This document shows, piece by piece, positions 1-6,101 of a DNA stretch of 64,000 nucleotides. The stretch covers positions 165,030 through 229,029 of the forward strand of contig CAYZXY010000001.1 in NCBI GenBank assembly GCA_964482555.1, written 5' to 3'. The position numbers and the translations under genes are program-made. The notes beneath the pieces are model-generated. The model did no database searches and was not told where the DNA came from. It saw only the letters and a list, made by a program, of their open reading frames with translations. Position 1 is the stretch's first letter; every line of letters begins with the position of its first letter. This DNA comes from an uncultured Pirellulales bacterium (GTDB lineage Bacteria; Planctomycetota; Phycisphaerae; Sedimentisphaerales; SM23-30).

Positions 1-1122
1 CAGGGTGATATCTCCGCCGGCCAGCAACGACGTCATGATTTCATCCGGGCTGAACTTGATCGGCCGATCCAGATGGCGGCCGTTGATATTGATGGCAATG
101 CTGCCGGGATTGCCCGATAGCTCAACGTTGCCGTCCAGTTGCAGGAGGTCTCCCTTGATCTTTCCGTCAAGGAACAGGTCAATCGGCTTGACGGCCTGTT
201 CTCCCCAGTCCGGCGTCTGAAGCTGAGTGACGGAGGCTTCCAGGCCGGCATCGACTTTTCCTTTTTCATAAACCGCCTTGACATTCAGATCAGCAAATCC
301 GCGAAGGGGCATATCATTGGCAAGTAGCCGGTTGACGGCTTCGAGGTTTACCGGCTCGTCAAAGCTGAACGCCGCATCGATGACGGCCCGGGCCGGATCG
401 ATTTGTCCGTTGTGCAGCAGATTGTCCGCTTTGAAGTTGCCGGAAAGGGCGCCGCCGTCGGTTGTTTTCAATGAGAGCTTCCCTTTGACATCATTAAGGG
501 AGTTGATGTCGAGCTCGCCTGAGATATCCGTCAGCTCATACGTCCGGTCCTGCTGGTTGATAAGCCTGATTTTGCCGCTGCTCAACTGGACTTTGCCGAA
601 AATTTCCAGCAGGGGCTGCTTTTTCTGCCGGGATTCGGTCGGTTGTTTCTGCTGAGGTGTGCGAGTTTTATCTTTCTTGTAACCGTTCTCTTTCTTTTCC
701 GTCGCCGGCTGTTCCCCGGTGGTTTTCTGCTCGTCAACATATACGGTCCATACGGGGCAGTCGATTTTGACAGAGCCAAATCGCATGGGGCTGGTAACGG
801 AATTCCAGACGCCGTTATCCAGCGTGACTTTTTCGACCCGGACGATTTCTCTGCCGGCAGCGTCGCTGACTTCAATGCCTGAGGCGGTGATGGGGTGAAA
901 CCATTTCAGAGTCAAATGATCGAGTTTGACGTTTGCCGACATCTTGCCGTTCACCGTATTGACCACAAACTCGCGGCCCGGACCCGATGACGCGACATAA
1001 GGCAACATCGAGACCAGCAGGACAAACACAAGGAGAACTGACAGAACAATTTTCAGCCACAGAAAACGATGTTTCTTTTGGGGATCGCTGGTTTTTGATT
1101 TTTTGGTTTGCGATTGCTTCAT
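1..1122 (-). CDS. AsmA/DUF748-like membrane-anchored protein, N-terminal part (runs off the left edge)
   Basis: Not in the ORF track because no stop lies in the window. Hand translation from ATG 1122 (GAGG upstream) is open for 374 codons: MKQSQTKKSK...HRFLWLKIVLSVLLVFVLLVSMLPYVASSGPGREFVVNTVNGKMSANVKLDHLTLKWF. One N-terminal TM followed by beta-rich sequence, typical of AsmA-like proteins. Confidence 0.7.
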   Translation of the reverse strand, partial: MKQSQTKKSKTSDPQKKHRFLWLKIVLSVLLVFVLLVSMLPYVASSGPGREFVVNTVNGKMSANVKLDHLTLKWFHPITASGIEVSDAAGREIVRVEKVTLDNGVWNSVTSPMRFGSVKIDCPVWTVYVDEQKTTGEQPATEKKENGYKKDKTRTPQQKQPTESRQKKQPLLEIFGKVQLSSGKIRLINQQDRTYELTDISGELDINSLNDVKGKLSLKTTDGGALSGNFKADNLLHNGQIDPARAVIDAAFSFDEPVNLEAVNRLLANDMPLRGFADLNVKAVYEKGKVDAGLEASVTQLQTPDWGEQAVKPIDLFLDGKIKGDLLQLDGNVELSGNPGSIAININGRHLDRPIKFSPDEIMTSLLAGGDITL

Positions 1123-1401: not shown

Positions 1402-3540
1402 TTAAAGGTACAGAATCAAAGCGGTGGCGATGGTTACAACGAACATGGTAATCATGCCCACGAGCCCCAATGTGTCCTTAAGGGAAGAAGGGACGAAGGT
1501 GAAGGGTTTGTTGACCGTTTCCAGCGAGCGAATAACGGTCTGCTGCGGTCGGGAAAAATGGGCGTAAGGATTATGGCTGGGTGCAGCCGGCTGCGGTTCC
1601 GGCTCCGGTTCGAAATCCGTCTGGCTGCTGCCTTCCAGCTCATCCATAACCAGTTGCTCGTCTTCTGAGATCGGCTCCGGCTCCGGCTCCGATTCAGGTT
1701 CAGGTTCCAGTTCCGGCTCCGGCTCCGATTCAGGTTCAGGTTCCAGTTCCGGCTCCGGCTCCAGTTCCGGCTCCGGCGTTTCAGAGTCATCATTACTGCC
1801 GTCATAAATATCAGATACATCCATATCCTCTTCAGCATCATCAGAGATGACATCTTCCAGATTTGACAAAATCTGATCCAGGTTTTCATCCGTTTTTTCG
1901 GAATCTTCGAGTTCATCTTTTTGGGTAGCCGATGGTTCGGCGGCAGAGGTATCGGGCTCATCGGCGAGGGCGGCTGGTACGAGGTCTTCTTCGTTATCAC
2001 TGTCGCTATCCTGCACCGTTTCCGTCATTGCCGGCGTTTCAGCTTCAGTTTCTTCAATAGTGTCCCGCGGTTCCGGTGTCTCGGCCGATGCGGTTTCCTG
2101 CTGCGTCTCCGGGGCGCCCTCTAATTCCTTTTCCAGACCGGCCAGCAATGCATCCATGTCTTCCGCCTGTGCTTCATTCGATTCGTCACTATCGGATGAG
2201 ACATCAGCAGTTTCCGGTTCCGATGGAATCAGGTCATCCATCGCTGCATCATTTTCCGGGGCCGATACGCGGGATGACTGCGGTGCAATATCTTCGGGTT
2301 CCGACAAAAGAGCATTCGTCTGATCACCCTTTTCTTCAGCCGGCAAGGTGTCATGTAGCGCCTTGGGAGATTTCCCGGCATCCTCCGCAGCCGGGCTGTC
2401 CTTTGCTGCGGGCTCAATAGTGTCTTCAGTAAATGCGGCTTCGTTATACACAGCTTCCGACTCTTGTTCCATTTCCTGTCTGGCGAGCGTGTCGTCTATC
2501 GATTCTTCGTCAGACGTCTCCGGCAGCGCTGAGGTTGTTTCATTATCTTCGATTGCCAGAGTCGCTTCCGGCTCGTCTGATGCTTCGGCGGTTTGCTCCA
2601 GAAGATTTTCTGGTATAATCTCGTCGGTGACTTCTTCCGTAGAATCCGCTTGCGATTGTGATTCCTCCATCTGCGTTTCGCTGGCAGCGATGAGCTCATC
2701 AACGGAAGCATTATCCTCCGTCGGTTTTTCAGCTTCATCCGTCTCGACGGTCTCGACATCAGAAATCTCGGCTATTACAGCTTCCATCCCGCCTTCGACA
2801 ACCGCTGAATCTTCAGCTTCACTGCCGACAGCCTCACCATTGAGCTCTGCTGCCAGCCCCGTCAGCATATCATCGATATTGTCCGGAGCCTCTTCTGCAA
2901 CGTCCTGCTGCTTTTGATCTCCAGACTGCCGCGCCGATTCAGTACTATCAGAATTCTCATCCGCGTTATTCTCGCGCGAATACTGAGCAACATCTTCGAG
3001 TAATTCCGTCAGGTCCTCCAGAATATCATCTTCAATAATGCCTGTCTCATTGCCGTCTGCCATAGCTGCAACGTCATCCTGGTTATTAGACACATTATCA
3101 AATGTCGCCGTCGCTTGTTCGCTGACAGCTTCTTCGGGCTCAGTTTCTGATGGAGCTGACTCCTCCGCAAACGAACCGGATATCATGCTGATTTCCTGTT
3201 CCAGCGACGCCAGCGTATCGTCCACGTTTTCGGAGTTATTCAGGTCAACATTATTATGCCGCGGTTCCTCATCGCCTTGATCTTCGAATGGTTCCTCATC
3301 GGGACCCATTTCCAAATCAACCTTATCAAGGTTTTCCACCGCTTCCGCCAGCAGTGAATCGATGTTCGCTGGATCGGATATACCCGTATCAATATCATCG
3401 CCGCCGATTTCGGACAGGGCATCATCTTCCCCTTTGGTTTCCGGAGCGGAATTATCGGCCTGGTTTTCCGGCTGATTCGAGGAAGTCGATTCTGCGTTGT
3501 TTTCGTTGTCTTTTTCTTCTCTGTTGGATTCTTCCGACAT
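1402..3540 (-). CDS. Highly acidic, probably disordered protein with a C-terminal TM anchor
   Basis: 712-aa ORF, D/E-rich throughout, with a single hydrophobic tail ([22 protein letters not shown]). Confidence 0.85.
1673..1777. repeat. Coding hexamer array (Glu-Pro repeat) containing a 36-bp tandem duplication
   Basis: GGCTCCGGCTCCGATTCAGGTTCAGGTTCCAGTTCC twice (1679-1714, 1715-1750); encodes [12 protein letters not shown]. Confidence 0.9.
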
Positions 3541-3671
3541 AACTACGGTTGTCCTTGCACAGATTATTTACTTTTTGCGTTACGCCATGAAATATATTAC
3601 CTTAATCGGTCAAAGCGTTGTGTGAATCGACTTTTATGCGGATAAGTTGTGTTTTTTTTGCGAGAACAGGT

Positions 3672-4397
3672 ATGCAGGACGTACCACGATTTTATTGCTG
3701 TCCGATAACCTCGCCGCAAACCGGACTGCCGGACGACCAGGCTCATCATTTGTTGCATGTGCTGCGGTTAAAACCCGGCGACCGGGCGGAGGTGTTTGAC
3801 GGCCGGGGAACGCTGGCCCACGCTGTTGTGGCTGATATCGGCAAAAAGCAAGTAACGCTGGATGTGATCGAGATGTTGCCGCCGCAGCCGCCCCCCGGCC
3901 CGCGGCTGGTTATCGCCCCGGCGATTGCGAAGGGCGAACGCTTTGACTGGCTTATCGAAAAATGCACCGAACTGGGCGCCGCGGAGATATGGCCCGTTGT
4001 CTATCGGCGTTCCGTGAAAATGAGCAAAAATCCCCGTACCCGAAAACGCTGGCAGCATATCGCCGTCGCCGCCTGCAAACAAAGCCGACAACTTTTTCTG
4101 CCGCATATCGAAGAATCTTACAGTTTAGCAAATGCACTGAATAGGTTTGTTCAAGAATTACCAAATGCTGTGGTTTTGTATGGTGATCAGGCGGGAGAGC
4201 CTGTGCCCGACATTTTACCGAAGAAAACGTCGCATGTGATTGTTTTTATAGGACCCGAAGGCGGCATGACGGATGAGGAAAAATCTCTGTTGGATCAACG
4301 GCAAGCCCGACCGGTTCGGATAGCCGCCGCTGTTCTGCGGATCGAGACTGCCGCTGTTAGTTTTGCGGCTTTGCTGGCAGAAAAATATGGTCATTAA
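3672..4397 (+). CDS. rsmE: 16S rRNA m3U1498 methyltransferase RsmE
   Basis: HHLLHVLRLKPG, KGERFDWLIEKCTELG, IGPEGG, LRIETAA motifs; start placed at MQDVPRFY. Confidence 0.97.
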   Translation: MQDVPRFYCCPITSPQTGLPDDQAHHLLHVLRLKPGDRAEVFDGRGTLAHAVVADIGKKQVTLDVIEMLPPQPPPGPRLVIAPAIAKGERFDWLIEKCTELGAAEIWPVVYRRSVKMSKNPRTRKRWQHIAVAACKQSRQLFLPHIEESYSLANALNRFVQELPNAVVLYGDQAGEPVPDILPKKTSHVIVFIGPEGGMTDEEKSLLDQRQARPVRIAAAVLRIETAAVSFAALLAEKYGH

Positions 4398-4789: not shown

Positions 4790-5935
4790 TTATGAAAGCC
4801 GGCCTTTAAAGTCATCATATGTGAAACGTTTTTGCAAAAACGTTTTATTCGCAGTCGGGTCATATAGCACAATATCCGGTAAATTGATCCCGTTAAACAT
4901 GGTGTTTTTGACCATGGTGTAATGGGCCATATCGTGAAAGATCAGCTTGTCACCAATGCTTAATGGTTTCGCAAAGGAATAGTCCCCGATGACGTCGCCC
5001 GCCAGACAGGTCGGTCCGGCCAGACGATATGTGTGCCGCAGTTCTCCCGGATTGCCGGCCCCTTCGATTTGCGGACGATAGGGCATTTCCAGCACATCCG
5101 GCATGTGGGCGGCGGCCGAGGTATCCAGTATGGCGATCTCCATTTCATTTTGCACAATGTCCAGTACCGAACTGATCAGAAAGCCGGTATTCAAGGCAAT
5201 AGCCTCACCCGGTTCGAGGTAGATTTCGACGTTGTGCCGCTGCCGGAAATCGTTGATCAGCCGGCAGAGTTTATCGACATCGTAATCGGACCGGGTGATG
5301 TGATGACCGCCGCCGAAATTGAGCCATTCCATGCGCGGGATAAACTCTCCGAATTTTTCCTCGAATACGGACAGTGTTCGCTCCAGCGAGTCGGCGTTAA
5401 GCTCACACAGGGTGTGAAAATGCAGACCCGTTATGCCGTCGAGTTCATCCGGCCGGAAATGTTCGCGGATGATGCCCAGGCGCGAGCCCGGTGCGCAGGG
5501 ATCGTAAATGGCCGTTTTGACTTCAGAATGGCTTGGATTGATGCGCAGGCCGCATTCGACAGAGCGGGGGTGATTTTTCACTTTGTCACGGAATCGCCGC
5601 CACTGGCCGAAAGAATTGAAGACGATATGATCGACCTTATCCAGCAGCTCGTCGATCTCGTCGTCGCGGTATGCCGGAGCGCAAAGGTGGACTTCGCCGC
5701 CGAATTCTTCTTTACCGAGCCGGACTTCAAACAAAGCGCTGGATGTGGTGCCCGCGAGCACGCCGCTGATCTGGTCAAACACGCTCCAGGCAGCGAATCC
5801 TTTTAACGCTAATAAAATCCGGCAGCCGGTGCGTCGCTGCACCGAGTCGAGCGTCGCCAGATTTTTCCCTAAAAAGCCGCGATCGATCAGATAGCAGGGC
5901 GTGCGTAATTGATGTAAGATATTGTCGTATAGCAT
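4790..5935 (-). CDS. nspC: Carboxynorspermidine decarboxylase
   Basis: TPCYLID, LALKGF (PLP lysine), GLHFHTLCE, LNFGGGH, HMPDVLEMPYRP, YTMVKNTMFNG; the ORF track allows a TTG start at 5956. Confidence 0.95.
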   Translation of the reverse strand: MLYDNILHQLRTPCYLIDRGFLGKNLATLDSVQRRTGCRILLALKGFAAWSVFDQISGVLAGTTSSALFEVRLGKEEFGGEVHLCAPAYRDDEIDELLDKVDHIVFNSFGQWRRFRDKVKNHPRSVECGLRINPSHSEVKTAIYDPCAPGSRLGIIREHFRPDELDGITGLHFHTLCELNADSLERTLSVFEEKFGEFIPRMEWLNFGGGHHITRSDYDVDKLCRLINDFRQRHNVEIYLEPGEAIALNTGFLISSVLDIVQNEMEIAILDTSAAAHMPDVLEMPYRPQIEGAGNPGELRHTYRLAGPTCLAGDVIGDYSFAKPLSIGDKLIFHDMAHYTMVKNTMFNGINLPDIVLYDPTANKTFLQKRFTYDDFKGRLS

Positions 5936-5952
5936 ATTCTTGAACCATGCAG

Positions 5953-5982
5953 ACAACCCCTCACGCCAAGTGAAGGAATGGT
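5953..5982 (-). repeat. ~30-bp REP-like hairpin (family 3), copy 2
   Basis: Reverse complement ACCATTCCTTCACTTGGCGTGAGGGGTTGT. Confidence 0.65.
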
Positions 5983-5985
5983 ATT

Positions 5986-6090
5986 TATACTTGTTCCGAT
6001 TGCAAATACCCGTTTTGTCGGAACGTAATTATCTGCGGATAAAAAGCTTACGCCCGGCTCTGGCGGGAGCTTTCTACCCAATTGGGTATA
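5986..6090 (+). mobile_element. 105-bp repeat family 1, copy B
   Basis: TATACTTGTTCCGATTGCAAATACCCGTTTTGTCGGAACG...TACCCAATTGGGTATA. Confidence 0.92.
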
Positions 6091-6101
6091 TCTGAAATTG
6101 T

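Follow-up and report, generated by a model that had tools for sequence, protein, structure and literature searches.

Phosphorylated CheY (CheY-P) has two classical peptide ligands, the N-terminal peptide of FliM (EIDALL) and the C-terminal peptide of CheZ (QVDDLLDSL), which dock on one and the same face of it; to our knowledge, CheY-P docking peptides are known only from FliM/FliY, CheZ and CheA. In models of chemotaxis, CheY-P diffuses freely among receptors, phosphatase and motor. We describe here a gene for an acidic, C-terminally anchored protein (P0001; an open reading frame of 712 codons at positions 1402-3540, minus strand) located in a 64,000-nucleotide stretch of DNA, hereafter the window, from an uncultured Pirellulales bacterium (GenBank assembly GCA_964482555.1, contig CAYZXY010000001.1, positions 165,030-229,029; GTDB lineage Planctomycetota; Phycisphaerae; Sedimentisphaerales; SM23-30). 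The gene is genuine and conserved among flagellated Phycisphaerae, and its product carries an ordered series of short helical motifs that resemble the FliM and CheZ peptides. The acidic protein may be a motility-linked multivalent scaffold, tethered to the membrane, on which CheY-P-type receivers or, with lower likelihood, FlhG would dock; we give this proposal slightly less than even weight.

Several described proteins share parts of this architecture. ChePep of Helicobacter pylori, a polar regulator of chemotaxis and a partner of CheZ, is like the acidic protein in being very acidic, largely disordered, lineage-restricted and motility-linked, but it lacks a membrane anchor and has a receiver-like domain at its N-terminus, and we know of no sequence similarity between the two. 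PopZ of Caulobacter also combines a disordered region rich in acidic residues with a short helix that binds clients, although it is soluble and self-assembles via a C-terminal domain, whereas the acidic protein is anchored in the membrane. HubP of Vibrio and Shewanella and FimV of Pseudomonas are single-pass proteins with an acidic, repetitive cytoplasmic region that recruit FlhF, FlhG and chemotaxis factors (PMC12826062), and the EIDAL motif of FliM binds both CheY-P and FlhG (bioRxiv 10.1101/2022.04.21.489128; PMC12826062). A literature search returned a description of neither the acidic protein family nor tethered EIDAL arrays.

Conserved motifs of the acidic protein

About nine repeated motifs had been reported in the initial annotation, which was made from the DNA letters and their translations, and all nine that it quoted were located in the protein: NIDSLLAEA (residues 59-67), SVDELIAA (279-286), SIDDTLA (347-353), AMDDLI (433-438) and those at residues 105-117, 173-184, 221-233, 461-473 and 553-565. 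Six of the nine scored 6.5-17.5 bits with a hidden Markov model (HMM) of 17 columns that was trained on regex-selected instances, while 100 composition-preserving shuffles of the protein gave zero matches. SVDELIAA and AMDDLI are weak instances with neither an HMM match nor a predicted helix, and the motif at 173-184 was unmatched by the HMM yet was predicted as a helix by AlphaFold2 with a predicted local distance difference test (pLDDT) score of about 75. At a threshold of at least 7 bits, the acidic protein stood alone among the 17,926 six-frame open reading frames (ORFs) of the genome.

Loss of the motifs in orthologues had been named at the outset as an observation that would overturn the first description, and the opposite was found. 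Sixteen orthologues held 67 motif instances with the pattern phi-D-(D/S)-x-L-(A/S)-x-L-x-x-E-L, against a mean of 0.22 in composition-preserving shuffles. Across 45 non-redundant family members 123 copies were counted (median 3, maximum 8) with the consensus x-(E/D)-(D/N)-(I/V)-D-(D/S)-(L/T/V)-L-(A/S)-x-(L/A)-(A/E)-x-E-(L/I), and the copy number varied among orthologues from 2 to 8 each. The linkers between motifs were unalignable across orthologues, and the conserved units are the short motifs themselves.

The motifs fall into classes that hold a constant order along the chain, namely A, B, C (1-6 copies), an optional D, and E, followed by a juxtamembrane module and the transmembrane (TM) helix. 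There are at least four or five ordered classes in addition to the juxtamembrane module, so the protein amounts to more than copies of a single unit. Motif A (residues 57-77; window positions 3310-3372, on the minus strand as are all features of the gene given below) lies nearest the N-terminus, comes first in almost every orthologue, has the consensus DIDSLLxxAxxSLxDVDxQLGE, and is the most widely conserved helix and a FliM-N-like one (AlphaFold2 helix 60-77, pLDDT 75-83). Motif B (residues 103-125; 3166-3234) had the highest HMM score at 17.5 bits and coincides with a predicted helix at 103-125; class B, VDxTLxxLExELxxL, was present in 20 of the 45 members at a median relative position of 0.23. 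It is followed by the helix at residues 172-190 (2971-3027; pLDDT about 75), which the main motif HMM did not match. Class C, with the consensus NIDDVLAxLAxEL, occurred 52 times in 30 of the 45 members and is represented here by a CheZ-C-like copy at residues 219-234 (2839-2886; 15.0 bits, predicted helix 222-233) and another at residues 459-474 (2119-2166; 13.1 bits, predicted helix 460-474). Further motif copies were found at residues 345-365 (2446-2508; 10.8 bits, predicted helix 348-365) and at residues 551-567 (1840-1890; 6.5 bits), the latter lacking a confident predicted helix. The consensus of class D is IIDxLPD. Motif E (residues 626-637; 1630-1665) was predicted as a helix with pLDDT about 79 and takes forms such as EDDAMVLDELE, EEDRLVMAELE and EVDQVVMKELA in orthologues.

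The best conserved part of the family is the juxtamembrane module (residues 655-689; 1474-1578; AlphaFold2 helix 664-676, pLDDT about 90), which reads Y-x-H-F-x-x-P-Q-x-x-(L/V)-x-x-S-L-x-x-x-N-K-P-F-x-F-V-P-x-x-x-K-D-T-L-G, with the F, P, Q, N, P, F, D and G residues nearly invariant. Between the motif copy at residues 551-567 and motif E lies an EP/ELEP spacer (residues ~588-623; 1672-1777), in which Tandem Repeats Finder (TRF) reported periods of 6, 18 and 36 nt and 2.4 perfect copies of the 36-nt unit. The spacer is a young DNA tandem repeat that was not found in the orthologues, and it gave weak chance matches to low-complexity regions of TonB and SslE.

Composition, topology and family status

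The acidic protein contains 18.8% E and 11.5% D (30% D/E and 3% K/R), or 216 D+E against 23 K+R residues. Kyte-Doolittle values above 1 in 19-residue windows occurred solely at residues 682-712, the last 23 residues are the sole hydrophobic stretch, and a signal-like segment was not seen at the N-terminus. This stretch is the C-terminal TM helix (residues 690-712; 1405-1473), predicted by AlphaFold2 as a helix at 685-711 with pLDDT 91-96. The protein is thus tail-anchored in the usual sense, having a single TM helix within the final ~30 residues and no signal peptide, and only 0-3 residues follow the helix in this protein and most orthologues, with some distant orthologues extending 25-90 residues past it. 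Since there is no signal peptide and ~690 highly acidic residues precede the sole helix, the N-terminus is probably inside, with the chain facing the cytoplasm.

An AlphaFold2 run with a 34-sequence alignment gave a mean pLDDT of 53.8 and helices only at residues 60-77, 103-125, 172-190, 222-233, 348-365, 460-474, 626-637, 664-676 and 685-711. The overall picture from the model is of a predicted disordered, cytoplasm-facing chain bearing helices that would fold conditionally. The description with which the analysis started, of a tail-anchored, acidic, disordered protein whose sole TM segment lies at the extreme C-terminus after an EP spacer, agrees with the composition, the mean pLDDT, the single C-terminal helix, the hydrophobicity scan and the TRF repeat at 1672-1777, and the tail-anchored designation is right for most orthologues as well.

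Assignment to a known family with another function had also been named as a result that would count against that description. A Pfam scan of the protein matched zero families at E<=1, an NCBIfam scan gave only chance-level low-complexity matches to TonB and SslE, and a sequence search of the PDB returned nothing above chance-level low-complexity matches. A word-based homology search with the whole protein had no matches because the sequence is of low complexity.

A composition of this kind raises the alternative of a physical polyanion role, in which the protein, rather than being a docking scaffold, buffers cations or polyamines, keeps distance as an entropic spacer or forms an electrostatic brush on the membrane, and its helices self-associate, for example in coiled-coil-like bundles. 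The extreme net charge, the free evolution of length and linker sequence together with the young EP repeat expansion, the heptad-like spacing of motif B and a carboxynorspermidine-decarboxylase-like gene 1.2 kb away are in keeping with such a role. However, distant orthologues are far less acidic (D+E 10-18%) and still retain motif A and the anchor module, so conservation is not of charge alone; neither the downstream neighbour nor the polyamine gene is kept at other loci, and the motif matches known hetero-docking peptides, as described in the following section. We consider the polyanion role quite unlikely.

Resemblance to CheY-P docking peptides

The motif HMM was compared with three reference peptides, namely the E. 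coli CheZ C-terminus, E. coli FliM residues 1-20 and the PopZ N-terminal helix. The CheY-binding C-terminal peptide of E. coli CheZ scored 13.6 bits, which is inside the range of the acidic protein's own copies (10.8-17.5 bits), and each of its aligned positions was within the allowed residue set of the motif. E. coli FliM 1-20 scored 7.7 bits and the FliM N-terminus of this genome 8.9 bits, while the PopZ helix scored -0.9 bits. A motif-A model built without the acidic protein was also run over all six-frame ORFs of the genome; the acidic protein ranked first and the FliM N-terminus, MADVLDQDEVDALLNAV, second or third depending on motif length. Across Phycisphaerae the FliM N-terminus reads VLDQSEVDALLAAV, and motif A of the acidic protein in the same genomes takes the forms NVDSLLAEV, EEIDRLLAEA, DIDSLLAAA or GLDDLLADA; one orthologue contains QAEIDALLTKE. 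The sequence signature of the CheY-P docking peptides, a phi-D-x-L-L core in a disordered acidic segment with a short predicted amphipathic helix, was found in the acidic protein. The lead to FliM and CheY in the initial annotation has thereby gained ground, with a resemblance to FliM-N, a stronger one to CheZ-C and the co-occurrence of the gene with the flagellum described below.

FliM-N, and also that of FliY, has the same phi-D-x-L-L-(A/N)-x-phi core in an acidic and disordered context, but the acidic protein has several copies, a membrane anchor and neither a FliM nor a FliN domain, and its helices have no LSQ prefix and are longer, continuing x-L-x-x-E-L. The C-terminal helix of CheZ (E. 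coli ...QDQVDDLLDSLGF) is like the motif copies by HMM score, although the phosphatase bundle of CheZ and a CheZ Pfam match are absent in the acidic protein, and the genome encodes a CheX phosphatase.

Motif-like peptides were also seen in other proteins. The FliN of a Phycisphaerae genome from another family (locus L102, G381:C17) carries three FliM-type peptides, NQDEIDAIVNQA, SQADIDAMMSGG and TQADVDALVNAA, in its N-terminal tail, and a docking-peptide array was not found in FliN of the host's family (132-182 aa). Directly upstream of fliM in the present genome (C5:2889-4884, minus strand) is a gene for a 664-aa membrane protein that appears by eye to be histidine-kinase-like and has a weak motif-like stretch, PNEIDSFLDRLTQSL.

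Distribution and association with flagella

A whole-protein search of 40 relatives gave matches confined to the same family and mainly to the final ~100 residues, and the C-terminal region of the acidic protein and its orthologues was used as the family profile. Exactly one copy was found in 22 of 25 genomes of the host's family, the three genomes without the gene being 62-72% complete, and none in 176 genomes of other families of Sedimentisphaerales. A profile of the juxtamembrane module matched 62 of 1.84 billion representative proteins, all of them acidic and 250-530 residues long, and in each case the module was located at the very C-terminal end. The family is single-copy and confined to the class Phycisphaerae.

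The gene is divergently oriented to rsmE, encoding a 16S rRNA methyltransferase with Pfam Methyltrans_RNA and PUA_4 domains (3618-4397, plus strand), in 13 of 13 host-family loci, and the pairing was kept in 10 of 12 loci from other orders of Phycisphaerae. Among 15 flagellated genomes that the profile had missed, ten do have such a gene beside rsmE; its product is acidic, with a phi-D-x-L-L helix in the N-terminal part and a membrane helix at the C-terminus. These rsmE-adjacent genes are positional orthologues, and the family therefore spans most of the sampled flagellated families of Phycisphaerae.

Presence of the gene follows that of the flagellum. FliM was found in 22 of the 25 host-family genomes with E near 1e-65, and a strong FliM match was absent in 16 sampled genomes of other families of the order. 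A class-wide sample of 301 Phycisphaerae genomes included 155 FliM-positive and 146 FliM-negative genomes and 66 with the juxtamembrane module; 65 of those 66 were FliM-positive, at most one of the 146 FliM-negative genomes had the module, and the co-occurrence gave a Fisher p of 3e-21 that is not corrected for phylogeny. At the syntenic site in 13 non-flagellated genomes of the order the rsmE neighbours were unrelated and none was acidic and C-anchored, so the flagellar pattern is not an artefact of profile sensitivity. Candidate partners are encoded in the genome, including a cheX-cheY pair (CheY at C21:22995-23373), flhA-flhF-flhG-fliA (FlhG at C9:4984-5883) and motA, with a methyl-accepting chemotaxis protein (MCP) in the window.

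Comparison with landmark and hub proteins

A PopZ/HubP-like hub had been put forward in the initial annotation, and a kinship with PopZ or HubP is not supported by the comparison. Like HubP/FimV, the acidic protein is a single-pass membrane protein with a long and very acidic, repetitive cytoplasmic region, but its repeats are short motifs rather than long tandem units and the chain order is reversed, with the anchor at the C-terminus. The N-terminal periplasmic LysM domain and TM segment of HubP/FimV are absent by Pfam and by the C-terminal position of the sole hydrophobic segment, the FimV C-terminal domain (TIGR03504/03505-type) was not found by NCBIfam, and there are no 46-residue repeats and no sequence relationship. 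The C-terminal oligomerisation domain of PopZ (Pfam DUF2497) and its MEEILASIRRII-type N-terminal helix were likewise not found, in line with the -0.9 bits of the PopZ helix. The acidic protein belongs to none of the families HubP, FimV and PopZ and could at most work as they do.

Working like HubP or FimV would make the acidic protein a landmark for flagellar placement, whose helices capture FlhG, FlhF or several clients at a membrane site and which controls flagellar number and position rather than chemotactic signalling. The genome encodes flhA-flhF-flhG-fliA, the gene co-occurs with flagella, the topology is like that of the acidic repeat region of HubP and the several ordered motif classes suggest several clients; furthermore, the EIDAL motif of FliM is a binding site for FlhG, whose localisation is assisted by HubP (PMC12826062; 10.1101/2022.04.21.489128). 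Against these points, LysM, FimV and TPR domains were not found in the acidic protein and the strongest peptide match is CheZ-C, for which CheY is the only known ligand. We regard a landmark function as unlikely, yet as the main rival of the docking scaffold.

A general PopZ-like polarity or condensate hub for the chromosome, division or other polar functions, not tied to motility, would also fit an acidic disordered chain with short binding helices, a variable motif copy number, a gene that lies outside the flagellar clusters and a promoter region that fits the FliA model poorly. However, the gene was absent in all 176 sampled genomes of the order's non-flagellated families, and at the syntenic site in the 13 genomes noted above, so it is dispensable for general cell organisation. 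As the PopZ helix does not fit the motif and a PopZ domain was not found, such a hub appears very unlikely, and the general polarity role suggested initially is unlikely in view of the non-flagellated sister families that lack the gene.

Promoter region and neighbouring genes

A promoter-like element, TCGATT-N14-ACCGATTA, is located at 3603-3630 on the minus strand, 63-90 nt upstream of the ATG of the acidic gene. In 12 of 13 orthologues a box of the form (A/G)(C/T)CGAT(A/T)A was found at a distance of 57-115 nt before the start codon and is preceded at a distance of 14 nt by a T-T-x-A-T-T box, the two being at 3603-3610 and 3625-3630 in the window. The conserved form in the intergenic region between rsmE and the acidic gene is TTGATT-N14-(A/G)(C/T)CGATAA. 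The element falls inside the longest rsmE frame, which begins with a TTG at 3618, so the start of rsmE is more likely the ATG at 3669.

The (A/G)(C/T)CGAT(A/T)A box resembles the FliA -10 element, but the upstream box is TTGATT and not TTAAAG. A FliA-type promoter, TTAAAG-N11/12-ATGTCCGATAA, is located upstream of fliM (C5:2732-2840) and was conserved in seven host-family genomes (loci L031-L036). The FliA model derived from fliM placed fliM, fliD (C1:141216), cheX-cheY (C21:22482) and motA (C9:16051) among its top six. A FliA (sigma-28) promoter had at first seemed plausible for the acidic gene on account of the GCCGATAA-like box in 12 of 13 orthologues, but the fliM-derived model does not single out this gene. 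A matrix made from the acidic gene's own sites had genes that looked by eye like housekeeping genes at its top, including lon-like, uppS-like and phosphoenolpyruvate (PEP)-carboxykinase-like genes, and the 8-mer of the promoter box was not enriched in intergenic DNA of the genome. FliA dependence of the acidic gene is not supported, because of the scores with the fliM-derived model and because the own-site matrix favours housekeeping-looking genes.

The gene downstream of the acidic gene occupies window positions 1-1122 on the minus strand and runs 2.5 kb past the start of the window (C1:162498-166151). Its 1217-aa product has a membrane helix at the N-terminus and matches DUF748/YhdP (AsmA-like) weakly. 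An operon with this AsmA/YhdP-like gene was considered and discarded, since none of 13 orthologous loci has kept this neighbour and each has a different downstream gene. The decarboxylase-like gene mentioned above (4790-5956, minus strand) has Orn/DAP/Arg decarboxylase-type domains, and its adjacency was not conserved at orthologous loci. Two copies of a dispersed intergenic repeat of ~107 nt, 80-89% identical, are present at 1161-1267 and 5984-6091. Related sequence, CTTTTTATCCGCAAATAATTACGTTCCGATAA, was found in other parts of the genome in front of at least eight genes that are unrelated to each other, and the repeat gives rise to spurious small ORFs (...NYVPTKRVFAIGTSI...).

Proposed function and significance

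From these features we infer a scaffold whose C-terminal TM helix and juxtamembrane module would fix it to the inner membrane, and probably also to a membrane partner, while ~650 acidic and disordered residues would extend into the cytoplasm and present four or five ordered classes of short amphipathic helices. The class A and C helices may fold as they bind CheY-P-type receiver domains at the alpha4-beta5-alpha5 face; a less likely partner is FlhG, a MinD-type ATPase that also recognises this FliM motif. Several copies of a soluble flagellar or chemotaxis regulator could in this way be held at the membrane, with the scaffold acting as a tether, as a buffer or sink, or as a platform for hand-over in the vicinity of the motor, the receptor array or the CheX phosphatase. 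Further partners would probably be bound by the remaining motif classes and by the juxtamembrane module.

A number of observations weigh against a CheY-P docking scaffold. The motifs are short, phi-D-x-L-L in an acidic context is a generic amphipathic pattern, and the LSQ prefix typical of FliM-N is not present. Classes B, D and E and the juxtamembrane module are without a known counterpart, and other partners are therefore likely. The link with flagella may go back to a very small number of evolutionary events, perhaps a single loss within the order, and any trait differing between these clades would co-occur equally well. In addition, the acidic gene never adjoins flagellar or chemotaxis genes, rsmE being its sole conserved neighbour, and the fliM-derived FliA model puts its upstream regions at the 15th-93rd percentile only.

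The further step, that the acidic protein founds an undescribed class of flagellar or chemotaxis accessory proteins of Phycisphaerae in the form of a membrane-tethered, multivalent CheY-P receptor apart from the motor switch, is a doubtful one. If it were true, each molecule could hold up to about six CheY-P and the chemotaxis signal would be buffered or spatially routed, for example by feeding CheX with CheY-P or by delaying the arrival of CheY-P at FliM. Relative to a freely diffusing CheY-P, a membrane-anchored display of several peptides would add a signal-control element based on sequestration, routing or localisation; alternatively, the protein may act on flagellar number through FlhG. 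The motifs provide a function-level lead for an orphan family that was missed by every domain library, and short peptides together with a small receiver protein make a clean system for biochemistry. Either role would fall in a phylum whose cell biology has barely been explored.

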